Below, piece after piece: positions 10,315 through 60,029 of a stretch of DNA of 64,000 nt; position 1 is the stretch's first letter, and every line of letters begins with the position of its first letter. Source of the DNA: Alphaproteobacteria bacterium (GTDB lineage: Bacteria > Pseudomonadota > Alphaproteobacteria > JBMOFM01); NCBI GenBank assembly GCA_049318825.1, contig JBMOFM010000006.1:50013-114012 (forward strand), in the 5' to 3' direction. The notes below the pieces were generated by a model. It did not search any database, was not told the DNA's origin, and saw only the letters and a list, made by a program, of their open reading frames with translations. Both the position numbers and the translations under genes were made by a program.

Positions 10315-11377
10315 TAATAGCGCCTTCCCCACCATTGCAAAGCCAGAAGATATTGGGCAGGCGCTTCGCCATGATGTTGTCCATGTATCAATGTTGCTTC
10401 ATGCCTTGCGCATTGGTGGGGTGGTGCCTATTGAGGTTGCTGGCGAGTTTTTTTTATTGGCGGCGTCCAGAGGCGCTAACCAATTTTTTGAAGATATAGA
10501 GCGTTATTCTTCTCCTTCCCCTTTGTGTTACCGTTTTTTTCCAGAACAAGAAGAATTGCGCTTGGAAGTTCATGCTGTTGCTCCCAGCGCTGTTGTTGCT
10601 GAGGTTAATCCTAGGCCTGAGCCTGAGTTATTACAATTTGTGCGTCTTTTATTGCAGCAGGCTCAGATAATGCCCAAGGGGTGGTTGTATCCATTGCCTG
10701 CTCATATTGTAGCGCAGCAAACAGATTTAAAATTTTTGACGCCGCAGCAATTTAATTGTTATCTGCAGCATAAGGATGATCTGGTTGCTGAAAATAGCGT
10801 TTTTATTCCGTTGCCACAAAAAGTGAATGCAGAAATAACAGCATTTAGGACAATTTTTACGGATGAAACCCATGCTGCCCTTAGTTTTTCTGGAAAAAAT
10901 AACCAAGTAGAGCAGCCTTTGTTGGTGCGCATTCATTCAGCTTGTTTTACTGGGGATATATTTCACAGTTTGCGTTGTGATTGTGGCGCCCAATTAGAAT
11001 CAGCTATTAATATGATGGCTGAAGCTGGTGGTATTATTCTCTATCTCATGCAAGAGGGGCGCGGTATCGGTTTGGCCAATAAGTTGCACGCCTATCAATT
11101 GCAAGATCGGGGGTTGGATACTTATCAAGCGAATCAGCAAATAGGTTTTCCTGAAGATGCAAGGGATTATGCTTTAGCTGCTCATATGCTACAAAAAATG
11201 GGCATCACGGATATACGTTTGCTCACCAATAATCCCGATAAAGTCGCAAAATTGCAAAAATTAGGGATAAATGTTGCGGAACGAGTGGGTATTGTGATTG
11301 CGGCCACCCCAGAAAACCGTGATTATTTAGCCAGTAAACAAAAAAAATCCGGCCATTTTTTAGGCCAAGATGTGTAG
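10286..11377 (+). CDS. ribA: GTP cyclohydrolase II (RibA) with a roughly 170-aa N-terminal extension of unknown function
   Basis: The C-terminal 190 aa match RibA: [25 protein letters not shown], the zinc Cys triad, and [11 protein letters not shown]. The N-terminal part lacks RibB (DHBP synthase) motifs. The track start overlaps argG by 29 nt, so the true start may be later. Confidence 0.7.
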
Positions 11378-11531
11378 CCATTTTGGGTGTATCGGCAAGT
11401 GGGCTTTCGTCTTGGCTGGTGGTGTGATCAAGATATTGTCTTTTTTGCGGCAAAATAATACTGGATTTTAAGATCCTACTTCCATTAAAACATAAAGCTT
11501 AACTTTTTATAAGTAAGAGCGTTGTCTGCAA

Positions 11532-13982
11532 ATGTCATCTCAAAATAATTTTTTTCTGAATAAATTACTTATCGCCAGTTTGGCAGCTCCTTTAGTGTGT
11601 TGGGCTGCTGTTGCTGATGCAGCTTCAAGTAAAGCCAGTCATCCGGCGCATGTATCGGTGGCGCAATCAGGTGCTAAAGGCACTGTGGCCGCAAAAGAAA
11701 GCAAGCGCTCGGCAGTGCAAGCCGAGTCGCCAGAAAAAAATGAGGTAAAATCCTCTGTAAGAGAATCATCGCAATTAATTGATGATTGGGTGCGTAAACT
11801 GGTCGCCTCCAACTACTTATACCACACCAATATTTTAGGCTTGGGCGTGGATAGAGGCACGGAGCTTTCTTTTGTAGAAGGTGAAGCAAAATATTTCTTT
11901 CCAGTGCCTTCAGGGGTGCAGCCTTCAGAGGCCAGTTTTGATTTAGGTGCATCCTATCAATCGGCATTTGCTGGTCAGAGTCACTTACAATTATCCGTTG
12001 AGGATATGCCATTGGCAACCGTTGGTTTAACCTCTACGGATCAGGTTTTATCTTCTCGCTATCCGCTTTCTGTGGCCAATATTTCTCCTTGGATTAAAGA
12101 TGGTTTCTTAGCGGTAAAAGCTAGATATTCAGGCGCCTTCACTAAGGATAGATGCTATGATCAGCGCGTATTGGGGGATCGTTTATATATAACACCGCAA
12201 ACTGGTATCACCTTGTCTTACCCATCCTACCGTATTGATGGTTTAGAAGCGGCGATGCGCTTGTTGCCTCATGAAGTTACCATCAGTTTACCTGCGGGCC
12301 AGTTGGATGAGGGTGGTTTTGAAACAGCCCTGAGCATGGCTTCAAGCTTAACCTCGGCTGGTCATCAGGTGCGCTTTGAGCGTTTGCCACATGCGGGTAT
12401 GTTGGTTAATGCTGTTGGTGGTGCTGCTGAAAAGGCATTGGTTGCTGTGCAGGCGTTATACCCCGATGTGCAAAAAAATGAACGCGGCGTGGTTAATCTC
12501 CCCGATGATCGTTCGGCTTTAGCTTGGGCTTTGGCTATTACCGCTTACGAGGTGGATGATCGTCCATTGTCGGATCATGATAAGCGTCCGGCCAATGGTA
12601 GTATTGGTCAGATTGTGTTAGCCAGTCAGGCTGATCTTGATGCGTTGCGTTCTGTAGCGCAAAATCTGGGGGTGGTAGCTGATCAGCATAATGCCAAAGA
12701 ATTATCGGCATTATTAAAACAGCGTTTCTTGGTGCCAGCAGCATCCACGGCGTTGCAGCAAGATGCCAATGTTTCCCTGTTACGTTTGGGAACACAGCCT
12801 TTGGTGTGGTTGAAGCCTTCAGTGCAAGTTGCAGGTGGTACAGTTACTGGCCAGCCAGCCGCCGCTTGGTTGGGTGGTGTTTGGCAGCCAACGGCTTCTG
12901 GTCAGACCGCTGCTTTAGTGAGCGTGTCGCGTGATCACAATACCGGCAAAAACTTTGTGCCATGGGAAGAATTGCCCCAACAATCAACGGCTATTCAGGA
13001 TATATCCTACCGTGGTAGCTGGGTAGCTTCTGTTCCTTTGTATGCTTTGCCAGCAGGTACCCGCCCTGAGCGTTTGGTGTTGGATATTATGCCGGGTGTT
13101 GATAGTGTTTCCGGCCCAACTATTGCTCAGGTTGAGGTGAATGGTGTATTACTTTACGCTGAGCGTGTAGAACAAGGTAAGGTTCACCGGATTTCTGTGA
13201 CTATTCCAGTGGCTTTGGTTCGTTTGTTTAACACGGTTGAGGTTACTGTTCAGCGGGCATTAGATGGTGGTGATTGCTTGCGCACTCCCGCTTCTTACTC
13301 AGCGCAGCTGTTGCCATCAAGCCGTGTTGAATTATCGGATATGGGCGAGGCATCGGCTTTCCATGATTTAAGCAGCTTGTTTCGTCAGGGGTTGACTATT
13401 TATCTGCCGCAATATGCAGCAGAGCAATCGGAAATATGGTTGGAAGCTTTATCGGCTCTTTCTCCCGGTTTGATTAGCCCTAATATTAACTCAAAAATCC
13501 AGTTTGTGGCTTCTGGGTCAACGCCGGCTAAACCAACTAGTCACTTCCTTGCTTTTGGGGTGCCATTGCCAGAGGGTGTTGTGGAGCCACCAATTTTGTT
13601 GGATAAAGGCCGTGTAACAGTACGTGCTTTGGATAATTCTGTGTTGCTTGATCTTGTTCCTGCTCAACCTTTGTGGGTGGCTCAATTAACCAAAATGAGC
13701 GATTATCAAGGCTTATGGCTATCCAGTCAAGCCATGGTGCCACCTCCAACTTGGAACAAGATTGGTTTGGATAGGGGGGATACTGCATTCTTAGATCGCG
13801 AACGTATTTCCTTATACCTACATTTGCGGTCACCAGCAGAGGCGCGGGTTGAATACCCAGCCACCAGTACAGTTCAGGATGTTTTGAAGCGTTATTGGAC
13901 CGCAGCTTTGGTGTTGTTGTGGTTGGTATTGAGTTTGGTGTTTGCCTTGTATCTGAAGCGGCACTACCGTTCTAAAAACTAA
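11532..13982 (+). CDS. large periplasmic protein with signal peptide and a single C-terminal TM anchor. BcsB-like architecture (putative polysaccharide synthase periplasmic subunit).
   Basis: 816 aa. N-terminal signal LLIASLAAPLVCWAAVADA, then a soluble part of about 770 aa, then a C-terminal hydrophobic helix ALVLLWLVLSLVFALYL followed by KRHYRSKN. It is immediately upstream of a BcsA-like GT2 synthase. The assignment rests on architecture and context only. Confidence 0.4.
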   Translation: MSSQNNFFLNKLLIASLAAPLVCWAAVADAASSKASHPAHVSVAQSGAKGTVAAKESKRSAVQAESPEKNEVKSSVRESSQLIDDWVRKLVASNYLYHTNILGLGVDRGTELSFVEGEAKYFFPVPSGVQPSEASFDLGASYQSAFAGQSHLQLSVEDMPLATVGLTSTDQVLSSRYPLSVANISPWIKDGFLAVKARYSGAFTKDRCYDQRVLGDRLYITPQTGITLSYPSYRIDGLEAAMRLLPHEVTISLPAGQLDEGGFETALSMASSLTSAGHQVRFERLPHAGMLVNAVGGAAEKALVAVQALYPDVQKNERGVVNLPDDRSALAWALAITAYEVDDRPLSDHDKRPANGSIGQIVLASQADLDALRSVAQNLGVVADQHNAKELSALLKQRFLVPAASTALQQDANVSLLRLGTQPLVWLKPSVQVAGGTVTGQPAAAWLGGVWQPTASGQTAALVSVSRDHNTGKNFVPWEELPQQSTAIQDISYRGSWVASVPLYALPAGTRPERLVLDIMPGVDSVSGPTIAQVEVNGVLLYAERVEQGKVHRISVTIPVALVRLFNTVEVTVQRALDGGDCLRTPASYSAQLLPSSRVELSDMGEASAFHDLSSLFRQGLTIYLPQYAAEQSEIWLEALSALSPGLISPNINSKIQFVASGSTPAKPTSHFLAFGVPLPEGVVEPPILLDKGRVTVRALDNSVLLDLVPAQPLWVAQLTKMSDYQGLWLSSQAMVPPPTWNKIGLDRGDTAFLDRERISLYLHLRSPAEARVEYPATSTVQDVLKRYWTAALVLLWLVLSLVFALYLKRHYRSKN

Positions 13983-13990
13983 TTTGATGA

Positions 13991-14024
13991 AAGGGTAGCG
14001 TGCATGGGTGCGCCGCCCTTTTAA
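13991..14024 (+). terminator. possible intrinsic terminator or attenuator between the BcsB-like gene and the GT2 synthase
   Basis: 10-bp stem (aagggtagcg / cgccgccctt, one mismatch and one G-T pair), 10-nt loop, followed by a T-rich ttaattattggttt. Confidence 0.3.
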
Positions 14025-14119
14025 TTATTGGTTTGCTCTGATGCCATTCTACGCTTTTAATTACATCTAGCTAACCATCGTGCTTCATGTGTCTTTAATG
14101 GCTTGAGGCTTTTTTATGT

Positions 14120-16072
14120 TTGCTCTCGAATAAAGTATTTTTCATGTTACGTGCAGACAGTGATATAGGTCAATTTTTGATTGCTAAGGGGTTATTGAGA
14201 TCTGAGGCATGGTTGTCAGCTATTGCCAATGCCAAGATAGATAATAAACCATTATCCGAGGTTCTTCAGCGTGAAGCGGGGATAAATAAGGATGAGTATT
14301 TTCAGTCAACGGCTCAGTATTATAACCTGCCTTATGCAGATCTTGCTGCTTTTCCACCTGATATTTCCTTGTTTAAGTTGGATGATATGCAAGAATATGT
14401 CACCAATCAGGTGGTGCCATGGAAGATGGAAAATGGCAGAATGCTATTGGCAACCGCCTATCCAGGGCCAGATACTTTATTGTATGCCATGCGCCGCTAT
14501 GGTTCTTCTGTTGGCTTGGCGGTAGCTTCCGATGTGGCGGTAAAAAATGCACTACAGCATTTATATGGTGATGAAGCCTCGCATCTGGCTGTGCATGGTT
14601 TGAAAGAGAAGGATATAGACTCTTCTGCTTCTACCGTGTTGACTTTTCCCCAAAAGATATTTCTTTATATTCTTGCGTCTTGTATCCTATTGGGTTTCGC
14701 TTTTGATGGTTGGCGTACCTTATTGGTGATTAATATTGTGATGACATTCTTTTATTTGGGCAATTTTGTGCTTAAATCAGCCTTATTGTGGGTTGGTGGA
14801 CGTACTCGCCGCGTAGAAAATGATCGCTTGCAGTTGATGGCTGATAATCTACGGGATGAAGATTTGCCTGTTTATAGTATTTTAGTGCCTATGTACAAGG
14901 AAGCTCGAATATTAGAGGGGTTGGTGCAAAGTTTGCAGAAACTGGATTATCCGCCAGAAAAGCTTGATATTAAATTGGTGCTTGAGCAAGATGATTTGGA
15001 AACATTAGAAGCGGCCAAAGCCATGAATTTGGATAGCCGTTTTGATGTGGTGATAGTGCCCACAACTTTGCCCAAAACCAAGCCTAAGGCCTGTAATTAT
15101 GCGCTGCATTTTTGCCGTGGCGATTATATTGTTATTTATGATGCAGAAGACAAGCCTGAGCCGGATCAATTGCGTAAGGCTGTGGCGACTTTCAATATTT
15201 CCTCCCCTAAGGTTGTGTGTTTGCAGGCCTGCTTAAATTATTATAATGCCGAAGAAAATTGGCTGACGCGATTATTTACCTTGGATTATTCTTTATGGTT
15301 TGATTTTTTGCTCCCCGGCTTAGAAAAATGGAATATTCCTATTCCGCTGGGAGGGACATCCAACCATTTTAGGATCGCTGCTTTACGTGAGGTATGGGGC
15401 TGGGATCCATATAATGTGACGGAAGATGCGGATTTGGGTTTACGTTTAGCGCGTAAAGGCTATAGCGTTAGTATTGTGCCTTCTACCACTTTTGAAGAGG
15501 CCAATTGCCATATGGGTAATTGGGTAAAGCAGCGTTCTCGCTGGATTAAGGGATATTTTCAAACATTTTTTGTGCATTTACGCACCCCCATTGCTTTGTG
15601 GAGAACCTTGGGAACAAGGGGCTTTTTCGGCTTTTTGTTTTTTATTGGTGGCACCATGCTATCGGGTATCCTTAACCCCATATTCTGGGCAATGTATATT
15701 TTTTGGCTAGTCAGCGGTACCAGTGCCCTTGATCCCATGTTTCCCGGACTATTATTCCATATCAGTTTGTTTAACTTGATGATTGGCAATGGTATATTTA
15801 TTTTCTTGATGTTGGCGGCTCCGGTACGTAGAGGCTGGCTGGAATTGGCACCATTTGCTCTTACCGTATTTTTATATTGGGTGTTGATGTCGATTGCCGC
15901 ATGGCGTGCGCTCATTCAGCTGGTTAAAAATCCTTTTTACTGGGATAAAACGGTGCATGGTATCAGTAAACATAAGAATCAAGAAAATGATAAGGGGGGG
16001 CCATCCTCTGGTAATTTCTCATCGCACAGCTTTAATGACCGCTTGCGTAGTTTGCGTCAAGGGAGGCCATAG
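14120..16072 (+). CDS. processive family-2 glycosyltransferase (BcsA/CrdS-like beta-glycan synthase) with an N-terminal T2SSE_N/MshEN-like cytoplasmic domain
   Basis: 650 aa. About 170-aa N-terminal soluble domain containing IGQFLIAKGLLRSEAWLSAI...PLSEVLQ; two TM helices; a GT-A core with acidic D motifs (DAED) and QRSRW (Q-x-x-R-W); four C-terminal TM helices; then a short tail with no PilZ domain. Confidence 0.7.
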   Translation: MLSNKVFFMLRADSDIGQFLIAKGLLRSEAWLSAIANAKIDNKPLSEVLQREAGINKDEYFQSTAQYYNLPYADLAAFPPDISLFKLDDMQEYVTNQVVPWKMENGRMLLATAYPGPDTLLYAMRRYGSSVGLAVASDVAVKNALQHLYGDEASHLAVHGLKEKDIDSSASTVLTFPQKIFLYILASCILLGFAFDGWRTLLVINIVMTFFYLGNFVLKSALLWVGGRTRRVENDRLQLMADNLRDEDLPVYSILVPMYKEARILEGLVQSLQKLDYPPEKLDIKLVLEQDDLETLEAAKAMNLDSRFDVVIVPTTLPKTKPKACNYALHFCRGDYIVIYDAEDKPEPDQLRKAVATFNISSPKVVCLQACLNYYNAEENWLTRLFTLDYSLWFDFLLPGLEKWNIPIPLGGTSNHFRIAALREVWGWDPYNVTEDADLGLRLARKGYSVSIVPSTTFEEANCHMGNWVKQRSRWIKGYFQTFFVHLRTPIALWRTLGTRGFFGFLFFIGGTMLSGILNPIFWAMYIFWLVSGTSALDPMFPGLLFHISLFNLMIGNGIFIFLMLAAPVRRGWLELAPFALTVFLYWVLMSIAAWRALIQLVKNPFYWDKTVHGISKHKNQENDKGGPSSGNFSSHSFNDRLRSLRQGRP

Positions 16073-16079
16073 GGTAATA

Positions 16080-17915
16080 ATGGCTGATCAAAATAACATG
16101 CACGGTGCGGGTAAGGTTGTCGTTGATTATGATCTTGCGCAATATCGTGGCTTAAAACCATCGGCTGCCGGTAATGTGGCTGAAGAGGCCTCTTTTTTTG
16201 CGGGGGAAGGGCGCATAAAAAAATCTAGCCGTGCATCTGTGTATGATCAACGTCCAGCTTTATCGCGTGGGCAATTGCAGATGTTATTGTGGATGGCCTT
16301 CTTTTTTATTGCCGTGGTGATGGGAAGCTTGTGGTTAATGCATGCTCCATTTTCTCCTGATAATTTGGAAAATTGGGCGGCGGCGATTATTACCCGTGAT
16401 AATATGGATAGTTTTCGGGCTCGTTTTGCGGTGCAGGTATCGCCCTTACCCTTCTGGATCCATTATTTTTTACAATCATTTCCGGGTTTGGGGAATGTGC
16501 CGTCCTCGTGGTTAGCTGCTACTATCGTTCACTCTTTATTATTAATGCAGTGGTACGGCTTGCTGAAAAAAACCAAGGTAGGGCAGTTTTACAGTGTAGC
16601 CTTTGCTCTATTAGCTGGTTTGAACCCCATGGTATTATGGGCGATATGGCAAGGCACGGGCTGTGCTTTGTTGCTTTTCTTTTTTACATGGGCCGCGCGG
16701 GCAGCCTTCTTGGTGCGGCAATTACCCAATGAACGCTCGGTAATGGGGTTTGCGGTGGCGCTTTGTGGGATGTGTTTATCCCACCCCTTGGGTTATTATA
16801 TTTTATTTGGGATGATCCCATTTCTATCCTGGCTGGCAGCCCCGCAGATGCTTGCGCGCAGCATTCGCGGTTATCTCTCGATTATTTTATTCCCTTCCAT
16901 GTTATCCTTAGGGGCTGTGGTTTATCTGCACTGGCTATTTTTGGGCGATGGTTTAATTTTTATTCGTGATGCACAAGGCCCATTTGCAGGTGCTATGCGT
17001 ACCTTGCAACAATCAATATGGGCGATGCGTAATCAGGGCAAAATTATTGAACCCATGGCCTTTTTCTTTGTAGCGTCGGTATTTATTACCCCAGCCTTAA
17101 GCCGTGCATTCTGGTTAAGCAGAGCAAGGTTGTTACGGTTGGTGCCTGCTGCTGTGATGATGATGGGGATTATAGCCGGCGGTACCTTGGCTTCTTCCTT
17201 GGCGTATTTAGATCACCCAGCCACTATTTTATGCTTATATATCAGTTTATTGGCAGCTTTTACGGCCACGGGCGACCGTCCACCACCAGAGCCGCAGCGT
17301 TTGCTTGGCTTAATGTCTGTGGGTTGGTTTGTGGGCTTATTTATTTTATTTGTGTTTCCCAGCAAAAACACGGCTGATTTTTTAAGCGCGATTATTGGCC
17401 GAGAAAGCGAAGAACGGTTGGTTCAAAATCGTTTGATGGCCTTTAGTAGCCATTTTAAGGATTGTGATACCGTGTTGGTGGATGAAGAAGGGGCGTCGAT
17501 ATTAATAGACGGCTATGGGGATGGAAAAAAATTAATGCCGGGTGCTTCCCCTGGATTCTCCCGTTCCGTGTTATCTCGTCGTCCTGAGGGGGATTGTATT
17601 TTAGTGCCGCACCCTGGCAGTAGTGCAGGGAAAAAAGATCGCCTTAATCATGCTTGGCCTAATTTATACAAAGATGGTATTAATGGATATTTTCTGGTGG
17701 GTGAGCAAGATGATTGGCGTTTATATCAACGCTACGGCATGTTGAGAAAAAATCAGAAAATTCAGTTGTTACCAACTTATACACCAAATTCTGCTACACC
17801 AGAAACAGGTAAGCTAGAAAAGGCTACGCCGACAATAGTAAAACCAGAAGAAATAAAACCAGAAACAGTAAAAAATGTAAAACCATTATCGGTTGAAGAA
17901 AAAAAGCTAGATTAG
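16080..17915 (+). CDS. polytopic inner-membrane protein (about 12 TM) with a C-terminal Pro/Lys/Glu-rich tail, function unknown
   Basis: Start reassigned to ATG 16080, 8 nt after the GT2 stop and preceded by GGGAGG. The first 400 aa are many hydrophobic segments, followed by a roughly 200-aa soluble region ending in the repetitive ATPETGKLEKATPTIVKPEEIKPETVKNVKPLSVEEKKLD. The track ORF 15894.. overlaps the GT2 gene and is taken as an over-extension. Confidence 0.5.
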   Translation: MADQNNMHGAGKVVVDYDLAQYRGLKPSAAGNVAEEASFFAGEGRIKKSSRASVYDQRPALSRGQLQMLLWMAFFFIAVVMGSLWLMHAPFSPDNLENWAAAIITRDNMDSFRARFAVQVSPLPFWIHYFLQSFPGLGNVPSSWLAATIVHSLLLMQWYGLLKKTKVGQFYSVAFALLAGLNPMVLWAIWQGTGCALLLFFFTWAARAAFLVRQLPNERSVMGFAVALCGMCLSHPLGYYILFGMIPFLSWLAAPQMLARSIRGYLSIILFPSMLSLGAVVYLHWLFLGDGLIFIRDAQGPFAGAMRTLQQSIWAMRNQGKIIEPMAFFFVASVFITPALSRAFWLSRARLLRLVPAAVMMMGIIAGGTLASSLAYLDHPATILCLYISLLAAFTATGDRPPPEPQRLLGLMSVGWFVGLFILFVFPSKNTADFLSAIIGRESEERLVQNRLMAFSSHFKDCDTVLVDEEGASILIDGYGDGKKLMPGASPGFSRSVLSRRPEGDCILVPHPGSSAGKKDRLNHAWPNLYKDGINGYFLVGEQDDWRLYQRYGMLRKNQKIQLLPTYTPNSATPETGKLEKATPTIVKPEEIKPETVKNVKPLSVEEKKLD

Positions 17916-17970
17916 GGTGTTTCGCTGTACGCAGCATTATCTGCGGTGAATTTTGGATGAGGTGTGGTGC

Positions 17971-18978
17971 ATGAGGCTGCTTGTTGTAGATGATTCTGAT
18001 ATTTCGCGTGCCATGATTGGTGCTATTCTTAGCCGTGCTGGTTATGAGAATATTATTTTTGCCAATAGTGCCGATGAAGCCTTTGCTATTTTGGATATAG
18101 ATAATAACGCAGAAAAATCAGGCCCGTTGGTGGATTTAATTCTGCTGGATGTGTTAATGCCTAAGGTAAATGGCTTGGAAGCCTGCGCTAGAATTAAGGC
18201 CAATGTGCGTTATCGTCATGTGCCGGTGATTATTGCCACCACTTTAGTGGATGAAGAATATATGGCACAGGCTTTTACAGCGGGTGCTATCGATTTTGTT
18301 ACCAAGCCAGTTTCAGCGTTGGAATTGGTGTGCCGCACCCGCAATGCGCTGAAATTGAAAATGGAGATGGATCGCGCCTTGCAGCGTGAAAATGAATTGG
18401 TGTTATTATTGGCGGAAGCCCGCAGCACTGGTTCTGCTATTGGGATGAAGCTACCGCAGGTAAGCATAGATGTAACCACGGGGTTGCCCAATTTATTAGT
18501 GTTGGAGCATACGGTAGAATGGTTGTGCCAAAACAAGCTGTTTTCGCCCCTATCATTAAGTTTTTTTGAGATTAATGATTTTGCGGCCTATCAAACCTAT
18601 CAAGGGCATCCCGCGGCGGATCGTTTATCATTTTTAGTGGCCACGGCGTTACAGCGCCAATTATTGCATTTGGGGGCCAGTTTATTTCATGTGCGGGCGG
18701 GATTATTTGCCGTGATTGACCGCGATGCAGAATGGGAAAAATTACAACAGAGCGTGCCCGCCATTGTGGATGCTGTTTCTACGTTGCGTTTACCCCACGC
18801 TCATGCCACCGAGGGGGAGATTGTGACCTTGTCGGCGGCGGCGGTTTTTGCGGATAGTGGTCAGCGTTTGCAGCATCACTGGTTGATCAGGGGGGCAGAG
18901 GCCAATTTAGAAGACGCCAAAAAACTGGAAGATAAGCTAAAATTGGTGAAGTTGGTTGATTGGTTAGCGGTGAATTAG
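17971..18978 (+). CDS. response regulator: REC receiver domain plus a degenerate GGDEF-like C-terminal domain
   Basis: REC features: VVDDSD, phospho-acceptor D in LILLDVLMP, and T/K positions. The C-terminal half has a GGDEF-like fold signature (GLPN, INDFAAYQTYQGHPAADRL) but the catalytic GG(D/E)EF position reads RAGLF, so it is probably not an active cyclase. Confidence 0.6.
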   Translation: MRLLVVDDSDISRAMIGAILSRAGYENIIFANSADEAFAILDIDNNAEKSGPLVDLILLDVLMPKVNGLEACARIKANVRYRHVPVIIATTLVDEEYMAQAFTAGAIDFVTKPVSALELVCRTRNALKLKMEMDRALQRENELVLLLAEARSTGSAIGMKLPQVSIDVTTGLPNLLVLEHTVEWLCQNKLFSPLSLSFFEINDFAAYQTYQGHPAADRLSFLVATALQRQLLHLGASLFHVRAGLFAVIDRDAEWEKLQQSVPAIVDAVSTLRLPHAHATEGEIVTLSAAAVFADSGQRLQHHWLIRGAEANLEDAKKLEDKLKLVKLVDWLAVN

Positions 18979-19057
18979 GCTGCATGGATAAGACCCCCAT
19001 AGCCTGCGCTGAGCAGTGGATGGGGGGTATTTTTTACTGGTTGGATTTTTAATAATG

Positions 19058-19864
19058 AAGAACATAACAACATTAAAAATAGTCACATTATTGGCTTGGG
19101 GCGCTGTATTTGGTGCTGGGGAAGCAAGAGCGGGTGCTTGGACATTAAACCCTGGGGTGGGGCAGGTGATCACCAGTATTACCGCGGGTAATGCCAGCAG
19201 CTATTATGCTGATAATAGTGGCAAGAAATTGAATAAAACCGAGCTAACGGTTTATGGCGAATATGGGGTGAACCCATGGCTTACGGCCATTGTTGCGCCG
19301 CGCCAACAATGGTTTCGTTACAAACAAACTGGCTTTGCTAATAATGGCGATTTTACCTCGGTAGAGGCTGGCTTTCGCATGCGTTTATGGCAAAGCAATG
19401 CTTCGGTATTTTCGTTTCAGCTCACTGGTATTACCTCGTTGCGTGATTCTAGCAGTGGCGGTAATAATTTTGGCGGCAAGGGCGTGGAATATGATGTGCG
19501 TGGCTTATATGGCTATGGTATTTCGCCATTTATGGTCTCGAAGGGTGAACATGCCGATTTGTTTAGCCTGCCCATGTATGTGAATGCCGAAATCGCTTTC
19601 CGTGGGCGACCATCGCCATTATCGGATGAGGTGCGCACCGATATTGCCTTGGGCATTAAACCCAGCGATCGTTGGGAAATTCCTTTGCAATATTATGGCA
19701 TTTATGGGTTGGATGATGGTTATACCGGCCATAAGCTGCAATTATCTGGCATTTATGCCGTGGCGCCCGATTGGTTGGTGCAAGGCGGTGGCTATTACAC
19801 TTTTGCGGGGTCTGATTTCCCTAAAGAGCGCGGTGGCTTGCTGGCCGTGTGGAAGAAATTTTAA
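19058..19864 (+). CDS. small outer-membrane beta-barrel protein (possible porin or exporter)
   Basis: Signal peptide LAWGAVFGAGEARA; alternating amphipathic beta-strand pattern; C-terminal aromatic residue (...LAVWKKF), which is the OMP signature. Start moved to MKNITTLK. Confidence 0.5.
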   Translation, partial: KNITTLKIVTLLAWGAVFGAGEARAGAWTLNPGVGQVITSITAGNASSYYADNSGKKLNKTELTVYGEYGVNPWLTAIVAPRQQWFRYKQTGFANNGDFTSVEAGFRMRLWQSNASVFSFQLTGITSLRDSSSGGNNFGGKGVEYDVRGLYGYGISPFMVSKGEHADLFSLPMYVNAEIAFRGRPSPLSDEVRTDIALGIKPSDRWEIPLQYYGIYGLDDGYTGHKLQLSGIYAVAPDWLVQGGGYYTFAGSDFPKERGGLLAVWKKF

Positions 19865-19897
19865 GCCTGCGGCGGAAACTATTGCAAAATAGGGGCA

Positions 19898-21214
19898 ATG
19901 TGTTACACATTGCCCATGCCTTTATCCAGCCCTTCACCAAACCCTAGCGCGGCCGCTTCTGCGGTTGATTCCCTGCAGCAATATCGCTTGCAACAAGTGG
20001 AACAAGAGTTGCAAGAGCTGAAAGCGCGCGCGCAGGAAAGCCAGAAAGACTGGTTGCAGCGTTTAGAAAATAGCCAGAAAGAGTGGCGCAACGAAATTCA
20101 GGTGGAGCGGGATCAATATAACAAATCCGATGAACACCACCTCAATTTATACGAAAAACACCTCAATACGATTAGCGTTATTTTGGGTTTATTCGCAGGT
20201 GTGGTTGTGCTACTGAACTTTTTAGGGTGGCTGTTCGGGCGAAAATGGGTGAATGATTTTCTTGCTAAAAAAATCAATGAAAGCTTGGATAAAAAAGTAG
20301 ATGAACATATTAAAACATTCATTGACCCTCTTGAAACAAAGTTAAAGCAGAAAATTGTAGATCTTGAAGAACAAGGCCAACAGCTAATAGCTGAGCAAAA
20401 ACAGCAAGGCAAGTATCTACAAGCAACCCAATATTATGTGGATGCTGGCCGAGCGCTTGAAGAAAGAAATTATCTCCAAGCGATTGATTTATATAATGAC
20501 GCCATTGAGCTGAACCCGAAATTTGCTGAAGCCTATAATAATCGTGGGAATGCTAAGGCCGCGCTTGGTAAGCATGAAAAAGCAATCGAGGATTATAATG
20601 AAGCGATTAAGTTGAATGAGAATTATGCTGAGGCCTATAATAACCGTGGGAATGCTCATAGAAATCTTGGTGAGCATGAAGAGGCACTGGCAGATTATAA
20701 TAAGGCGATTGAGCTAAATGAGAATCTTGATATGCCCTATAATAATCGCGGGGTTGCTAAAGCAAGCCTTGGGAACTATGAAAAGGCAATCGAGGATTAT
20801 AATGAAGCGATTAAGTTGAATGAGAATTATGCTGATGCCTATCATAATCGTGGGAATGCTAAGGCCGCGCTTGGTGAGCACGAAGAGGCAATCACGGATT
20901 TTGATAAGGCGATTGAGCAGAACCTCAATGATGCCGAGACCTATAATAATCGTGGAGTTGCTAAAGCAAGACTTGGGAAGTACGAAGAGGCATTGGCGGA
21001 TTTTGATAAGGCAATCAGCTTGAAGCATGATTATGCTGGTGCTCATATTAATAAAGCTCGTATTTTTGCGCAGCAAAATCAGCCAACAAAGGCCTTGGTG
21101 GCCTTAGAACAAGCTATTCTCTATGATAAAGGCTTCAAAAAGCAAGCTAAGGAAGAAGCTGTTTTCAAGGTTTTGCAGGATAATCCAGAGTTTATAAAAT
21201 TAACAAAAGAATAG
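19898..21214 (+). CDS. membrane-anchored coiled-coil plus TPR-repeat protein
   Basis: N-terminal coiled coil and one TM (VILGLFAGVVVLLNFLGWLF), then at least 7 near-identical 34-aa TPR units (AEAYNNRGNAKAALGKHEKAIEDYNEAIKLNENY). The DNA-level repeats create antisense shadow ORFs. Confidence 0.6.
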   Translation: MCYTLPMPLSSPSPNPSAAASAVDSLQQYRLQQVEQELQELKARAQESQKDWLQRLENSQKEWRNEIQVERDQYNKSDEHHLNLYEKHLNTISVILGLFAGVVVLLNFLGWLFGRKWVNDFLAKKINESLDKKVDEHIKTFIDPLETKLKQKIVDLEEQGQQLIAEQKQQGKYLQATQYYVDAGRALEERNYLQAIDLYNDAIELNPKFAEAYNNRGNAKAALGKHEKAIEDYNEAIKLNENYAEAYNNRGNAHRNLGEHEEALADYNKAIELNENLDMPYNNRGVAKASLGNYEKAIEDYNEAIKLNENYADAYHNRGNAKAALGEHEEAITDFDKAIEQNLNDAETYNNRGVAKARLGKYEEALADFDKAISLKHDYAGAHINKARIFAQQNQPTKALVALEQAILYDKGFKKQAKEEAVFKVLQDNPEFIKLTKE

Positions 21215-21299
21215 GGTGGCTAGGGCGCGTTACTCTTAAGGCTTGTGTGCGAACAATTTATTGCCCTTCATTCTTTAGCCTTCAGTCCCTTAGAGCTCT

Positions 21300-21660
21300 C
21301 ATCCCCCCCCCTCACCCCTACCCTCTCCCAGAGGGAGAGGGGAAAATAAGGGCAGTCTCTCTCTCAGAGTGAGAGGGAGAAATAAGCGAGCACTTCTCCC
21401 AGAGGGAGTAAAATACTACCCTCTCCCATAGGGAGAGGGGAAATAAGGGGGTACCCTCTCTCCCAAAATTATAAAAACTGGGAGAGGGCTGATACATTTA
21501 CCCCCTCTCCCTTTGGGAGAGGGCAGGGTGAGGGTGTGCTTTCCCAAAAAAGAGACGGGAAAGGGATAAAAAAGGACGGCACTATCCAATTTATAAAAAA
21601 CGCAATTTTACTTAAACTCCCTCTCCCCCAAATTATAAAAACTGGGAGAGGCTGATGGTT
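21300..21660. repeat. cluster of short palindromic (hairpin-forming) repeats built on CCCTCTCCC-N3-GGGAGAGGG
   Basis: At least six units, at about 21321, 21354, 21393, 21419, 21453, 21501 and 21619. Variants include ccctctcccagagggagagggg and ccctctcccatagggagagggg (both followed by gaaaataaggg), ctctctcagagtgagaggg, and ccccctctccctttgggagaggg. Two larger-loop copies share about 35 bp (tcccaaaattataaaaactgggagagg, at 21463 and 21624). The cluster lies in the 480-bp gap between convergent genes. Confidence 0.7.
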
Positions 21661-21695
21661 GCTTATAAGTGGGCGCACCATAATCCCGCTTTTAT

Positions 21696-22271
21696 TCAAC
21701 TCATGGCGGGGAGGCCAGCCTGCATCACATATAACAGGGTGAACAGGCGGCGGGCGGTATCGATATTAATATCCACCTTGCCTTTTAACCGCTCTTGCAG
21801 CATGGCGGCCCCTTCATTATGCAGGCCACGGCGTCCCATATCCACGGCTTCTATCTGGGTGAGGCTGCAGCCACGGCTTACGGCCGCATAATAGCTATCG
21901 CATACCATGTGATAATCGCGAATAATGCGGCGGAAAGGGCTCAGCGATAAGCCCAATATGCCCAATATTTCCCCTGCCTGATTGGCCAGCGTTAAAATTA
22001 AGCGGTTATCCTTCACGCCCAATGTTAAGGAATAGGGCCCTTCAGGGAAATGATGCGGGGCAAAATAATTATCTTCCAGCAAATCATACACGGCCACCAT
22101 CCGCTCATGCCCCATTTCTGGGGTGGGCGAGGTTTCGCAGCCTTCGTCGAAGTTGAGTTTGATGATTTTCAGATTGGCCGATGGCACGGCAGCACTATCC
22201 TTATTCCCACTTATATTGAGGTTTTTAACAGGCTGCGGGGCAGCAGAAGACGTACAACCATCAGGGCACAT
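21696..22271 (-). CDS. UPF0262-family protein
   Basis: Conserved HERMVAVYDLLEDN, GPYSLTL, PFRRIIRDYHMVCDSYY, IEAVDMGRRGLHNEG and TARRLFTLL. Adjacent to hisG, as in many alphaproteobacteria. Confidence 0.6.
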   Translation of the reverse strand: MCPDGCTSSAAPQPVKNLNISGNKDSAAVPSANLKIIKLNFDEGCETSPTPEMGHERMVAVYDLLEDNYFAPHHFPEGPYSLTLGVKDNRLILTLANQAGEILGILGLSLSPFRRIIRDYHMVCDSYYAAVSRGCSLTQIEAVDMGRRGLHNEGAAMLQERLKGKVDINIDTARRLFTLLYVMQAGLPAMS

Positions 22272-22354
22272 TGTTTAACCATTATTTTCCATTAGCCCAT
22301 CATAGCGCAAATTATTCTTCTTCGCAACTGCAACATAAAACAGTGTCAATAGCG

Positions 22355-23029
22355 TTAGCCACGGATGGAAAGCTGTTGGCATACATCTGTAAACTTTGCA
22401 ACCCAGCCATGCACTTCATGTGAGCGGGTTTTACTGGCCGAGCGGTTAACCACCAACCGTGAAGAAATATCGGCAATAATTTCTACCTCTTCCAGCCCAT
22501 TGGCCTTTAAGGTGGAGCCAGTGGAGACCAAATCCACAATGTAATGGCATAAACCCAGCAAGGGGGCAATTTCCATGGCACCATTCAGTTTAACGCATTC
22601 GGCCTGAATGCCCTTATTGGCAAAAAAATTGGCCGTGAGGTGGGGGTATTTGGTGGCCACGCGCACATGGCTTGCGCCATTACCCACCGCCCCAACCCCT
22701 GAAGGGGCAGCCAAGCTCAGGCGGCAATGGCCGATATTAAGATGCAAGGGGGCGTAAATTTCACTATAATTAAATTCCATCAATACATCCGAGCCACACA
22801 CCCCTATCTGTGCGCCGCCAAAAGCCACAAAAGTGGCCACATCAAAAGAACGCACCCGCACCAAGCGCACATGCGGGTGTTGGGTGGCAAACATTAATTG
22901 GCGGCTATGCTCATCGTAAAAAGCGGGTTCTGCTTCTATGCCCGCCATGCTTAACAGGGGCATTAACTCGCGGGCGATGCGCCCTTTGGGAACGGCAATG
23001 GTTAAGGGAGACAATGCAAAACAACCCAT
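22355..23029 (-). CDS. hisG: ATP phosphoribosyltransferase (short form)
   Basis: LTIAVPKGRI, RLVRVRSFDVATFVAFGGAQIGVCGSDVLMEF; length 224 aa. Confidence 0.85.
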   Translation of the reverse strand: MGCFALSPLTIAVPKGRIARELMPLLSMAGIEAEPAFYDEHSRQLMFATQHPHVRLVRVRSFDVATFVAFGGAQIGVCGSDVLMEFNYSEIYAPLHLNIGHCRLSLAAPSGVGAVGNGASHVRVATKYPHLTANFFANKGIQAECVKLNGAMEIAPLLGLCHYIVDLVSTGSTLKANGLEEVEIIADISSRLVVNRSASKTRSHEVHGWVAKFTDVCQQLSIRG

Positions 23030-30724: not shown

Positions 30725-32125
30725 TTAAACAGGTAAAATAATTTCCACCATCAATCCTCGATTCCCATCGCTAAACATCGGATTGTTCAATAGTGTGAGT
30801 TTACCCTGATGCATTTTTACAATCGCTTTTACCAAACTTAAACCCAAACCATTGCCGGGAGAATTTCTGGCTGGATCAAGGCGAGTAAAAGGCTCGGTTA
30901 CCTTTTCTCTGGCCGCGGATGGAATACCGATACCCGTATCGGTAATAGTGATAACAACGTAATTCATGTTTCTCTTTAGGCTTAAAAAAACCTCCCCTCC
31001 TTGCTGATTATATTTGATAGCATTATCAATGAGATTAGAAATGGCTTGAATAAGAAGTTCTCGATGAACCTTACCCATCACTTCAGAATCAATAGAAGCG
31101 GTGAATTTTAACCCTTCATCCTCCACTAATGGCTGGTATAAATCAACTATATCTTCTACCAATTGTGAGAGATCAATTTCTGCAAGCGTTGATATTTTTC
31201 TACCCGCTTCAATTTCTGCAATCGATAATAAGGCTTGGAAGGTACGCAATATTTGATCTGTTTCTTGAATAGCGTGATCAATGGCTTGTGAACGGTTTTC
31301 TTCATCCTTATCTTCTAATGCCAGTTCAAGCCTTGTTTTTAAGCGGGTGAGGGGGCTGCGCAAATCATGGGCAATATTATGGGTGACATGACGAATGCCA
31401 ATCATTAAGCGTTCAATATCCGCCAACATATTATTCAAAATTTCCCGCAAGCGATCAAACTCATCTTCCGCGCCGGAAAGCGGAAAACGGTGGCTAAAAT
31501 CCCCCGCCATAATTTCACGGGCATTTTCAGTCACCACATCAATCTGGCGTAACATCCGGTGTGCCATTAACACGCCGCCCACCGTGCCAAAACCTGCCGC
31601 AATTAACAGGGAAGAAATCATGGCATCGAGAATAAGTAGGCGTAAATCTTCCCGCTGTTGTACATCGCGGCCAACGGCTAGGATGCCTTTATCCACAGAA
31701 ATCAATTGTGCCTGCATTAAATGGCCAGAGCGTTTCCCTGAATTGTTGCTAGCAACAAAGCTTTTCCACCCCTTTATTTCATTGGAGAGTAAAGGGTAAG
31801 CTTCGCTGCTATCCACATGTATTCCTGCTATTTCATCCACATATAAATAGAAATTTTCTTCACTTTGTTGTGATTTTTGTTGTACCAGATTAGCCAAGGC
31901 TTGTTTGCCGTCGGTTTTATAAACCGACATCAGCTCATCCATTTCCGTGTACACATGGGCATAGGTTTTGGTGTCGATTTTATCAATAGTGCGCCAGTAA
32001 ATATTGGCCAATACTGCAAGCAGCGAGACATAAAATAACCATGCATACAAAATAATCAGCCGAAAACTGCTGGTGCGTACAAAACGGCGAATGGTTTTTA
32101 ATACATTACTCGGCTTCATGATCAA
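30725..32125 (-). CDS. sensor histidine kinase
   Basis: Two TM helices plus HAMP; HisKA H-box HDLRSPLTRL; HATPase motifs GIGIPSAAREKVTEPFTR and GNGLGLSLVK. Confidence 0.85.
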   Translation of the reverse strand: MIMKPSNVLKTIRRFVRTSSFRLIILYAWLFYVSLLAVLANIYWRTIDKIDTKTYAHVYTEMDELMSVYKTDGKQALANLVQQKSQQSEENFYLYVDEIAGIHVDSSEAYPLLSNEIKGWKSFVASNNSGKRSGHLMQAQLISVDKGILAVGRDVQQREDLRLLILDAMISSLLIAAGFGTVGGVLMAHRMLRQIDVVTENAREIMAGDFSHRFPLSGAEDEFDRLREILNNMLADIERLMIGIRHVTHNIAHDLRSPLTRLKTRLELALEDKDEENRSQAIDHAIQETDQILRTFQALLSIAEIEAGRKISTLAEIDLSQLVEDIVDLYQPLVEDEGLKFTASIDSEVMGKVHRELLIQAISNLIDNAIKYNQQGGEVFLSLKRNMNYVVITITDTGIGIPSAAREKVTEPFTRLDPARNSPGNGLGLSLVKAIVKMHQGKLTLLNNPMFSDGNRGLMVEIILPV

Positions 32126-32798
32126 TCTTCAACATATAGCCATTACCCCGCATGGTGTGCAGCAACATGACATCAAAATCCTTATCCAGCTTTTGCCGTA
32201 GGCGCGAGACATGCACATCAATGACGTTGGTTTGTGGATCAAAATTAATATTCCACACTTTTTCTAGCAACATGTTGCGGGTTACCAATTGTTGGGGGTG
32301 GCGCATAAAAAATTCTAACAGGGCAAATTCTCTTGGTTTCAGCTCTAATTCAATGCCCTGCCGCCATGCTTGCCTTGTAATTAAATCTAAGGTTAATTCT
32401 CCCAATGTAAGCCTTGTTTGCGTGCTATTCGCATTTCGTCGCCGCCCTAATACTTCTATTCTGGCCAGTAACTCAGTAAAAGCAAAAGGCTTGGTGAGAT
32501 AATCATCGCTACCACCTTTAAGGCCGGTGAGGCGATCATCCAACTGCCCCAAGGCACTTAAAATAAGGATGGGTGTATCATTACCATCTTCTCGTAAGGC
32601 TTGGATGACCGATAAACCATCTTTTTTGGGGAGCATGCGGTCAATGACCAACACATCACATAATTTTTGGCGAGCAGCTTCTAGGCCAGATTCACCATCC
32701 GCACAATGCACCACCTGATGACCAGCATCTTGCAGGCCCTTTACCACTAAGGCGGCTGCTTTTTCATCATCTTCTACCAAAAGGACATTGAGCCCCAT
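32106..32798 (-). CDS. OmpR-family response regulator
   Basis: REC (LLVEDDE, D in VLVIDRMLP) plus a winged-helix C-terminus. Overlaps the kinase gene. Confidence 0.85.
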   Translation of the reverse strand: MGLNVLLVEDDEKAAALVVKGLQDAGHQVVHCADGESGLEAARQKLCDVLVIDRMLPKKDGLSVIQALREDGNDTPILILSALGQLDDRLTGLKGGSDDYLTKPFAFTELLARIEVLGRRRNANSTQTRLTLGELTLDLITRQAWRQGIELELKPREFALLEFFMRHPQQLVTRNMLLEKVWNINFDPQTNVIDVHVSRLRQKLDKDFDVMLLHTMRGNGYMLKIDHEAE

Positions 32799-32851
32799 AT
32801 TTTTCTCCATGTTGGTATATCGGTAACCATTTTTCTCTATGATCTACCATA

Positions 32852-39247: not shown

Positions 39248-40036
39248 GTGAGTAATGAAGCAGCCGAAATGGAAGCACAGGAAAAATATAGCACAATGAT
39301 GCTGGCGGTGGATGCGATCAGAGCCTATCAAGAAAAAAACTCTGATTTTATTTGGCAGAGAAAAGAAAATTTTCTGAGCGAATATCGACAGGGTCGGCGT
39401 GATTTTGCAGGTGAAGATTTGCGCGGGTTGTGCCTTGAATATAGCGGTATCCCACAATTTGAGAATTTAGTGCTGGATGATGCTAATGTAAGTGGCAGTC
39501 AATTCACAAGAGTAAAGTTCATTAATTTAAGCGCGAAAAATGCCCTATTCACTGATGTGGAAATGATAGAGATTATTGCTGAAGGGGCTGATTTCAGCGG
39601 TACTAATTTAGATAATATTGATGGTCATGAAGCCAGATTAGGCGGTTCAAATTTTTTTGGTGCGTCCCTCATTTATGCAAGTTTACGAAAAAGCAGTTTA
39701 TGGGAGTGTAATTTTACCGATGCGGATTGTACTTATGCCCAATTGAATGAGGCAAGCCTGAGAAGAGCAGATTTATGGAAAGCGTGTTTCTTGGCCGCCG
39801 GTCTTACAGAGGCTAAATTACAAGAAGCGAAATTGTACGATGCGGATTTTAGATTAGCGAACATTAGCGCCGCAAAATTTGAAAAGGCCGTGCCCAATAG
39901 CCAAACAATATGGACGGGCAGCCGCAATAGCCCTGAATCATTGCCAGAAGGCATGACGGCAGAGGCATTCAGCCAATTACAAAACCCTTCTGTAAAAAAA
40001 GCTGCCCCTAAAAGAAAGTTGGGATTGTGGTGGTAA
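39248..40036 (+). CDS. pentapeptide-repeat protein, paralog 1
   Basis: 262 aa, possible GTG start. The central region has runs of A-[DN]-[LF]-x-x pentads (ADFSGTNLDNIDGHEARLGGSNFFGASL...ADLWKACFLAAGLTEAKLQEAKLYDADFRLANISAAKF). Confidence 0.65.
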   Translation: MSNEAAEMEAQEKYSTMMLAVDAIRAYQEKNSDFIWQRKENFLSEYRQGRRDFAGEDLRGLCLEYSGIPQFENLVLDDANVSGSQFTRVKFINLSAKNALFTDVEMIEIIAEGADFSGTNLDNIDGHEARLGGSNFFGASLIYASLRKSSLWECNFTDADCTYAQLNEASLRRADLWKACFLAAGLTEAKLQEAKLYDADFRLANISAAKFEKAVPNSQTIWTGSRNSPESLPEGMTAEAFSQLQNPSVKKAAPKRKLGLWW

Positions 40037-40189
40037 TTATTGCGTTTTTTACTTGAATAGGGACTGAAACTTTTAATGCAAAAATCGAGGCCAAAATCAG
40101 GAAGAACATCACCCGCCGCAAAAAAATATTGCGTGGTCACGAAAAATCGCTACAATAAAAAAATTTATTTCAATGAAAGTTAAAATATT

Positions 40190-43716: not shown

Positions 43717-43788
43717 CGTTTTATGCCCTTATGGCTATTGTTATGCTTAACAATATATCATTTATGTAAAATATACTCAACCTATCTG

Positions 43789-50491: not shown

Positions 50492-50493
50492 GG

Positions 50494-58768: not shown

Positions 58769-58858
58769 GGCTGTAAGGTGCTAAGGCAATTAAAAAACTC
58801 TATCATTTTACGATAATTAACGAGCAAACTCAAGTTGCTTTCTGCGCACAGCGATTTC

Positions 58859-60007: not shown

Positions 60008-60029
60008 CTTATATTGATTTTACAATAAT

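Follow-up and report, generated by a model that had tools for sequence, protein, structure and literature searches.

A probable alphaproteobacterial member of the xag/sfz exopolysaccharide secretion family with a degenerate MshEN domain on its synthase

Organisation of the locus

The window analysed here, a stretch of 64,000 nucleotides from an Alphaproteobacteria bacterium (contig JBMOFM010000006.1, positions 50,013 to 114,012; assembly GCA_049318825.1), carries six co-directional open reading frames (ORFs) at 11532-21214, all on the + strand and with intergenic gaps of 7-137 nt. They are called A to F below. Gene A (11532-13982) encodes a BcsB-like (Sfz1-type) periplasmic subunit of 816 amino acids (aa), with a Pfam BcsB match, a signal peptide and a C-terminal transmembrane (TM) segment. 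The 650-aa ORF of B (14120-16072) encodes a XagB-type synthase, recognised by Pfam MshEN and glycosyltransferase family 2 (GT2) matches and by XagB orthology. It is followed by C (16080-17915), a XagC/Sfz3-type polytopic membrane protein with XagC homology and a GT-C fold in its AlphaFold2 model, and by D (17953-18978), an orphan response regulator in which Pfam and a family alignment identify a REC and a degenerate GGDEF domain. Gene E (19016-19864) encodes a XagA-type small outer-membrane beta-barrel, based on XagA homology, a signal peptide and a C-terminal Phe, and F (19898-21214) a TM-anchored coiled-coil/TPR protein, based on Pfam TPR_1 and hydropathy. The locus is best explained, with a probability of about 0.7, as an alphaproteobacterial form of a known family, the xag/sfz systems for synthase-dependent exopolysaccharide (EPS) secretion.

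A sequence-only reading of the same DNA had proposed a synthase-dependent module for EPS synthesis and export made up of six co-directional genes. Coordinates, strand and domains were found as described there, and the module itself is supported by homology and synteny. The public annotation places the start of B 8 codons downstream of the ORF start, which gives 642 rather than 650 aa. Genes A to F are flanked by housekeeping genes (argG, a ribA-like gene, UPF0262, hisG and a lysA-like gene). An Rfam scan of 10500-22500 found no family, the cyclic di-guanosine monophosphate (c-di-GMP) riboswitch included, and a promoter and terminator scan of the locus was uninformative, with counts near those of shuffled sequence.

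The synthase and its BcsB-like partner

In B, Pfam MshEN (PF05157) is matched at aa 68-154 (E=9e-11) and Glyco_trans_2_3 over a GT2 region at aa 252-528 (E=6e-28). The motifs of a processive GT2 are present (DAED; TED at 434-436; QRSRW at 471-475), and hydropathy places two hydrophobic segments ahead of the GT domain and three to four behind it. No PilZ domain was matched by Pfam in B, and the protein stops about 45 aa beyond the last TM segment. The proposal of a GT2 with an N-terminal MshEN/T2SSE_N domain and without PilZ was thus confirmed, both by Pfam and by alignment to PilB and PilF. B shares 47% identity with XagB of X. cucurbitae over aa 16-623, MshEN domain included, and 45% with Sfz2 of Mariprofundus. 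The MshEN plus GT2 architecture is common to more than 8000 database proteins, of which the closest to B are alphaproteobacterial and 52-54% identical; many close homologues carry the JGI name 'glycosyltransferase XagB'. Judged by these alignments, B is a XagB orthologue over its full length.

An AlphaFold2 model of B, built from 57 sequences, reached a predicted local distance difference test (pLDDT) score of 82.7 and a predicted TM-score (pTM) of 0.83. The nearest structures are the Chlorella-virus and Xenopus hyaluronan synthases and BcsA, followed by PcManGT, an archaeal membrane mannosyltransferase, and chitin synthases. Because the model resembles hyaluronan synthase and BcsA, B is predicted to have the fold of a membrane-integrated processive synthase-translocase. 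Since B scores far under the cut-offs of the curated BcsA/CelA, PgaC and NodC models (66 bits against the CelA model, whose cut-off is 699, or about 10%), it lies outside these named families.

Protein A was assigned by profile search, Pfam scans of the individual family members and an internal hhalign comparison. In hydropathy analysis, A has a signal peptide, and its only TM segment (790-808) lies at the C-terminal end. Pfam BcsB is matched by A itself at E=6e-6, above the curated cut-off, and by 25 of the 29 A-family members, with a best E value of 4e-25. When the A-family profile was compared with PDB sequences, the ten best matches were all BcsB chains (4p00_B, 2e-5; E. coli 6yg8_A, 8e-4). 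The two halves of A align with each other (hhalign probability 97.9%, E=4e-13) and contain one invariant Cys each, an internal duplication that fits the BcsB plan CBD-FD-CBD-FD-TM. A is also 27% identical to Sfz1 of Mariprofundus PV-1 (E=1e-26). Both the profile matches and the duplication agree with the BcsB-like architecture proposed for the 816-aa protein, and A is placed in the BcsB family, with two CBD/FD-like repeats.

Synteny and family assignment

A scan of species-representative genomes confirmed at least 553 XagB-type loci, of which 80 were kept for comparison. Synteny was assessed by tblastn of the window proteins against these 80 loci, 66 of which had enough flanking sequence. The gene order A-B-C-D-E was found in 20 of the 66 evaluable loci, a recurrence that puts the cluster far beyond chance, with A-B-C in 11 others and A-B-C-D in 5. 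Alphaproteobacterial taxa with A-B-C-D-E include Nitrospirillum, Niveispirillum, Aurantimonas manganoxydans, Xanthobacteraceae, Hyphomicrobiales and Sphingomonadaceae; Rhodobacteraceae are among those with A-B-C-D, and the A-B-C loci come mostly from gamma-, beta- and zeta-proteobacteria.

Two described gene clusters belong to this family. In Xanthomonas, xagABCD is needed for biofilm formation and directs 'an uncharacterised polysaccharide'; Clp and DSF signalling repress the operon, and the beta-1,4-mannanase ManA counteracts it (PMC3609779, PMC3528676). The data on this biofilm role are genetic and come from Xanthomonas. In stalk-forming iron oxidisers, a four-gene cassette 'bcsB-like, xagB, xagC, xagD' was described by Kato (2015, PMC4643136) and later named sfz1-6/sfb1-4 (Koeksoy 2021, PMC8250860; bioRxiv 10.1101/2021.03.12.435129). 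According to Koeksoy (2021, PMC8250860), Sfz1 consists of two BcsB-like domains and a C-terminal TM segment, and Sfz2 of a T2SS-E N-terminal domain and a GT2.

The window locus corresponds to both clusters, so the proposal that it has no counterpart among described EPS operons was not upheld. It encodes an MshEN-GT2 XagB orthologue with XagC directly downstream, and both a XagA-type barrel and an Sfz1-type protein are present. The glycoside hydrolase family 113 (GH113) enzyme of the family has an orthologue in the window too, but 30 kb away among housekeeping genes.

The XagC/Sfz3-type protein

The C ORF as listed spans 15894-17915, and its likely start lies at 16080, 7 nt past the stop of B, rather than at 15894. 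The protein had been described as having about 12 TM segments and a Pro/Lys-rich tail. The tail was recovered, and the number of segments became about 11: these hydrophobic segments lie at aa 68-426 and are followed by a soluble C-terminal domain and then by the tail, which is lineage-specific. Pfam and curated family models left C unmatched, as they did E, and a profile of C gave no matches among PDB sequences. C does match XagC of Mariprofundus (E=1e-28), and the xagB-xagC pairing is syntenic in about 40 loci. The C family is small: a search of 1.84 billion proteins yields 176 representatives at E<=1e-3.

An AlphaFold2 model of C from 97 sequences has a pLDDT of 86.6, rising above 90 for residues 60-555. 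In a Foldseek search with this model, the 21 best matches were all GT-C enzymes, among them AftA, PglB, DPY19, STT3, AglB, AftD, Pmt4, AftB and ALG3. In agreement with a GT-C fold, single family members have weak Pfam matches to PMT_2, DUF2142 and DUF6044. By this model, a GT-C fold can be assigned to XagC/Sfz3, a protein that had been of 'unknown function'.

GT-C catalysis typically involves an acidic residue in the first periplasmic loop (EL1), where the window protein has D107. An acidic residue lies within three positions on either side in 81 of the 97 members, but in the aligned column proper D/E make up only 63%. The strongest conservation is found in the C-terminal domain (D468, D520, E542, W546 and R547). 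That the most conserved polar residues lie there and not in EL1, that 16 of the 97 members have no EL1 acidic residue and that the window protein reaches significance with no Pfam GT-C model would suit a non-enzymatic, GT-C-derived scaffold or a channel-accessory subunit of the synthase complex. Such a role is possible but rather unlikely, because the GT-C core is predicted at very high confidence and resembles 20 different catalytic GT-C enzymes, because 84% of members keep the acidic residue, and because the strict linkage of xagB and xagC fits a modification step, like that of BcsG in cellulose systems. C is thus likely to be a catalytic GT-C enzyme, going by its model.

Among the compared loci, the XagC homologues of L013 (11857-13416), L015 (11887-13509) and L017 (11869-13569) contain in-frame stop codons and may be pseudogenes or assembly errors. 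The xagC ORF of L034 (X. cucurbitae), as delimited, aligns poorly at both ends.

The MshEN domain and c-di-GMP

According to Wang et al. (2016), MshEN domains bind c-di-GMP through two tandem 24-residue motifs, RLGxxhhxxGhhxxxxLxxxLxxQ, for which they also give a relaxed form, [RKPN]hGxxhhxx[GAS]hhxxxxhxxxhxx[QNKRYWST]. In V. cholerae MshE, either G11L or G40I abolishes binding; hydrophobic substitutions each cost more than 10-fold, and those of Arg or Gln less than 5-fold. Changes at these same motif positions are held by the authors to explain why XpsE does not bind. The combination of MshEN with a GT2, which the sequence-only reading placed outside the canonical cellulose, curdlan, MLG, PNAG and Pel systems, is not new: it is listed in their Supplementary Table 4 as 'MshEN - Glyco_trans_2_3', with a footnote that some entries have no recognisable binding motif. 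In the literature searched, no paper tied XagB to MshEN or to GH113.

In B, aa 14-164 can be aligned over their entire length with the PilB and PilF MshEN domains. In the model, four helices at the N-terminus lead into an alpha/beta unit, which is the MshEN_N plus MshEN_C organisation; the domain covers aa ~12-165. The MshEN segments from all 80 loci were scored against the relaxed motif, and mismatches are given as motif 1 + motif 2. Motif 1 of the window protein, DIGQFLIAKGLLRSEAWLSAIANA, has 2 mismatches (DIG...A), and motif 2, PLSEVLQREAGINKDEYFQSTAQY, has 4 (PLS...Y), 6 in all, so that the sequence falls outside the relaxed motif. Both Arg and both Gln positions are lost (D15, A38, P44 and Y67), Ser46 takes the place of the second essential Gly, equivalent to Gly40 of MshE, and non-hydrophobic residues occupy positions 7, 11 and 21 of motif 2. 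Gly17 of the first motif and most core hydrophobic residues are kept.

The same scoring revealed a gradient across the family. Both Gly positions are kept in Azospirillaceae (0+0 and 1+0), in gamma-, beta- and zeta-proteobacteria including Mariprofundus (mostly 0-2 + 0-1, with some Mariprofundus up to 2), in Chloroflexota/Thermomicrobia (0-1 + 0-1), in Xanthomonas (0-1 + 3) and in Xanthobacteraceae (3-4 + 1-2). The second Gly is replaced by S, P or V in sphingomonads (3-5 + 2-3) and by V in Rhodobacteraceae (3-4 + 3-5), and Mucilaginibacter (4+3) has lost both. It looks, from these motif states, as if the MshEN domain of the XagB family was ancestrally responsive to c-di-GMP and its site decayed repeatedly, the window copy being at the decayed end.

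The window copy could instead still do in B what PilZ does in BcsA, comparable to the C-terminal MshEN of E. coli NfrB. In that protein, c-di-GMP binding by MshEN activates the glycosyltransferase, and the GGDEF protein DgcJ contacts NfrB directly (PMC8669469). This precedent shows that an MshEN domain is able to gate a GT2. The Pfam match in B is above threshold, the whole MshEN_N plus MshEN_C region aligns with PilB and PilF, Gly17 and most of the hydrophobic core are retained, and the near-perfect motifs of many XagB relatives make it probable that the family is controlled by c-di-GMP. Against this stand the loss of all four Arg and Gln positions, Ser46 and the non-hydrophobic positions of motif 2, since comparable changes in XpsE are held by Wang et al. 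to cause loss of binding and G40I abolishes it in MshE. In addition, sister alphaproteobacterial lineages have V, P or I at the second Gly, which indicates relaxed selection on the site. Because the motif is degenerate, direct c-di-GMP gating through the window copy is doubtful and is considered unlikely, and we infer that B has probably lost c-di-GMP binding. Of the c-di-GMP input proposed earlier, the domain therefore stands, and the binding motif (2+4 mismatches, Ser at the second Gly) does not bear out the rest.

A trend opposite to the decay in B is seen in two gammaproteobacterial homologues, in which the usual MshEN domain is preceded by further tandem copies: three in P0002 (1105 aa, from a metagenome) and two in P0091 (Beggiatoa alba, 926 aa). 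The first motifs (RLG...Q) are fully canonical in the extra copies of P0002 and in the one complete extra copy of P0091. In the XagB homologues of Bacteroidota (L061, L066-L070, L074, L075, L077 and L079; Mucilaginibacter and others), both motif glycines are lost, the first being Pro (Ala in L079) and the second Ile, Leu or Met. The surroundings of these genes yielded no homologue of A, C, D or E, and Bacteroidota XagB seems to sit in a different genetic context.

The response regulator D

Pfam identifies a REC (E=6e-22) and a GGDEF domain (E=1e-11) in D. The D alignment comprises the window protein and 29 syntenic homologues, of which 27 are alphaproteobacterial and full-length and 2 consist of the REC domain only. 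The REC domain is intact throughout the family, with conserved DD pair, phospho-acceptor Asp, Thr and Lys. The GG[DE]EF signature is replaced by YRNG[LM]I in the homologues and by VRAGLF in the window, so the earlier description of the GGDEF domain as degenerate was correct (RAGLF at the motif position). No RxxD I-site lies upstream in any aligned family member. On these residues, D is predicted to be unable to synthesise c-di-GMP, and binding at an I-site is unlikely too; the most plausible reading of D is a putative phosphorylation-controlled adaptor.

The presence of D was also considered as a tracker of MshEN decay, the mean number of mismatches being 5.3 in loci with D and 3.6 in those without. 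This comparison is confounded by phylogeny, and it was rejected as evidence since Azospirillaceae combine D with perfect motifs.

Elsewhere in the window, at 30725-32810 on the - strand, the genes for a histidine kinase with a HAMP domain and for an OmpR-type response regulator diverge from that of a T2SSE-family secretion ATPase (32852-34450, + strand). This kinase might be the phosphodonor of D.

The barrel E and the TPR protein F

Protein E is about 250 aa long, has a signal peptide and no TPR, and ends in ...WKKF, with Phe as the last residue. It is 26% identical (E=1e-7) to XagA of X. cucurbitae, whose gene lies directly upstream of xagB, and two E-family members match the Pfam outer-membrane barrel family Phenol_MetA_deg; the profile of E gave no matches among PDB sequences. 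XagA homology, the Phenol_MetA_deg matches, the signal peptide and the terminal Phe together support the reading of E as a small outer-membrane barrel.

The membrane-anchored TPR protein that had been counted as part of the system is encoded by a real gene: F contains seven TPR repeats (Pfam TPR_1, E=4e-57) and one TM segment at 92-110. Its place in the system was not confirmed, as tblastn against the 80 related loci found no syntenic homologue. For this reason F is classed, from the loci compared, as a lineage-specific neighbour and not as a conserved component of the cluster. It is probably co-transcribed with A to E, and it occupies the slot held by a convergent GH113 gene in most alphaproteobacterial loci.

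A perfect palindrome with a 10-bp stem (GGGCAATGTGTTACACATTGCCC) lies between E and F at 19893-19915 and overlaps the first ATG of F, whose true start may be the second ATG at 19916. As for its function, a regulatory hairpin is conceivable, as is a weak terminator that parts F from the conserved genes.

The GH113 hydrolase and the polymer

A XagD-type GH113 glycoside hydrolase is encoded at 50494-51555 on the - strand, 30 kb from the cluster, flanked by a TetR gene (49904-50506) and by a 253-aa ORF without annotation. Its N-terminus, SRRQIMFTGLVGILGGAGLLL, has a Tat-like signal sequence. The protein matches Pfam GH113 (E=1e-36) and shares 37% identity with XagD of Xanthomonas and 35% with Sfz4 of Mariprofundus, which are themselves GH113 proteins by Pfam (8e-32 and 5e-46, respectively). 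In Xanthomonas and Mariprofundus, as in most loci from Alphaproteobacteria, GH113 genes belong to the cluster or lie beside it; in the alphaproteobacterial loci they are convergent and come right behind the barrel gene. A phosphomannose isomerase gene adjoins the sfz cluster. Pfam found no mannose-nucleotide genes in 37 ORFs of the window (of 51 ORFs of at least 180 aa).

All PDB sequences matched by the window GH113 below E=1e-3 are endo-beta-1,4-mannanases (4cd6/3civ, 4e-19; 5ylh; 7dv7). The cluster-encoded periplasmic glycanase of synthase-dependent systems normally acts on the polymer of its own system, as BcsZ does on cellulose, and plant mannan is made by GT2 enzymes of the CslA type. 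Because the solved relatives of the hydrolase are all beta-1,4-mannanases, we infer that the polymer backbone is most likely beta-1,4-mannan or glucomannan. That the sequence-only reading left the polymer open still stands, the Xag polysaccharide being described as uncharacterised. Rhizobial glucomannan (gmsA) was weighed as a characterised relative and set aside; a literature list gave no evidence of a link between gmsA and the xag/sfz family.

It is quite unlikely that A and B are instead a divergent BcsAB pair making a beta-glucan (a cellulose, curdlan or mixed-linkage variant) with the GH113 unrelated. In favour of such a pair, cellulose synthases are the best PDB and NCBIfam matches of the GT domain, A belongs to the BcsB family and has CBD-like domains, and the GH113 gene is 30 kb off in this genome. 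Against it, B scores 66 instead of 699 bits against the curated BcsA/CelA model, PilZ, BcsC and a GH8 BcsZ are missing, GH113 is physically linked to xagB/xagC in Xanthomonas, Mariprofundus and most of the alphaproteobacterial loci, and the model of B is at least as near to hyaluronan synthase as to BcsA, a fold that leaves the donor specificity unfixed.

Other genes in the window

Two kilobases from the GH113 gene, a 369-aa curlin-repeat protein (53582-54691, - strand; Pfam Curlin_rpt, E=2e-32), a curli-like amyloid subunit, is encoded, and three ORFs without a Pfam family follow beyond it at 57629-61712 (- strand). The curlin gene suggests a second biofilm-matrix system in the window besides the xag cluster. 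Adjacent paralogous pentapeptide-repeat proteins of 262 and 258 aa are encoded at 39248-40966 (+ strand), followed by a znuABC-like zinc uptake cluster at 41018-45473 (- strand).

Proposed mechanism and significance

In the mechanism that goes with the xag/sfz assignment, B would polymerise a beta-linked glycan from a nucleotide sugar and thread the chain through its own TM channel. A, anchored beside B, would take over the chain in the periplasm, and the barrel E would pass it over the outer membrane. Because of its GT-C fold, C most likely draws on a polyprenyl-phosphate sugar to decorate the polymer, or to anchor it, on the periplasmic side, and the XagD-type GH113 may trim or release the polymer. 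Control would more probably be exerted via phosphorylation of D, acting by protein contact, than by direct binding of c-di-GMP.

Several points weigh against this proposal. The best PDB matches of the GT domain, together with the BcsB-like partner, would fit a glucan just as well. In the window genome the GH113 gene lies apart from the cluster, and its role there is assumed from other genomes. Gene adjacency is the sole basis for a role of D in controlling B. The EL1 acidic residue typical of GT-C catalysis is only semi-conserved (81/97), so C could be non-catalytic. As for the MshEN domain, Ser46 is small and the contact is made via the backbone amide, which leaves residual c-di-GMP binding possible, and the substitutions of Arg and Gln cost less than 5-fold in MshE.

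A further idea, in which an alphaproteobacterial XagB once gated by c-di-GMP has been rewired, must be regarded as a long shot. Its MshEN domain would have lost nucleotide binding and would dock D, a fossil of a local cyclase partner like DgcJ in the pair DgcJ-NfrB, as a phosphorylation switch, in combination with a GT2-made beta-1,4-mannan decorated by the GT-C protein. To our knowledge, a GT2-made beta-1,4-mannan with dedicated periplasmic GT-C decoration occurs in no characterised synthase-dependent system.

The xag/sfz family is widespread, with the at least 553 loci counted above, and is tied to Xanthomonas biofilms and to iron-oxide stalks; the window joins the Xanthomonas, iron-oxidiser and alphaproteobacterial clusters as one family. 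The value of the locus lies mainly in leads at the family level, the window genome being otherwise an ordinary family member. One lead is the predicted GT-C glycosyltransferase fold of the XagC/Sfz3 subunit. Another is the hydrolase, which belongs to a beta-mannanase family and predicts a mannan-type backbone. Finally, the gradient from canonical to decayed MshEN domains would provide natural positive and negative controls for gating of a GT2 by an N-terminal MshEN.

Comparison with known systems

In common with BcsABZC, the window locus and its hydrolase have a processive GT2 with a TM channel, a BcsB-family subunit anchored at its C-terminus, a glycanase in the periplasm and a component for export across the outer membrane. 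The locus differs in that the synthase has no PilZ domain, the BcsB-like gene precedes that of the synthase and the glycanase is a GH113 instead of a GH8. Moreover, the small TPR-less barrel E stands in place of BcsC, with its TPR and 16-strand barrel, and the GT-C protein is extra.

The E. coli NfrB-NfrA-YbcH system likewise has a GT2 synthase fused to MshEN and an outer-membrane partner (PMC8669469). However, the MshEN domain of NfrB is C-terminal and fully conserved, whereas that of B is N-terminal and degenerate, and B matches the NfrB model only weakly (E=0.007), in the MshEN region only. NfrA is a TPR-barrel fusion, and the Nfr system has no BcsB-like, GT-C or GH113 component.

The closest counterparts are the two clusters of the xag/sfz family. 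In Xanthomonas xagABCD, XagB corresponds to B, XagA to E, XagC to C and the GH113 protein XagD to window 50494-51555. Unlike the window locus, this operon contains no BcsB-like and no REC/pseudo-GGDEF gene, begins with the outer-membrane barrel gene and includes the GH113 gene. Its MshEN domain retains xLG...Q and RLGD, positions at which the window copy is degenerate. In the sfz/sfb cluster of Mariprofundus and Ferriphaselus, the order Sfz1-Sfz2-Sfz3 is identical to A-B-C, and Sfz4 is the GH113. The XagA-type barrel and the REC/pseudo-GGDEF protein are missing there, the genes sfz5 and sfz6 are extra, and the MshEN domain is near-canonical (motif 1, 0-1 mismatches; motif 2, 1-2), unlike that of B. 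The sfz cluster is tied to iron-oxide stalks, for which there is no evidence in the window genome. Judged by its gene content, the window cluster combines the BcsB-like subunit of the iron oxidisers with the XagA barrel of Xanthomonas and adds a REC/pseudo-GGDEF protein.

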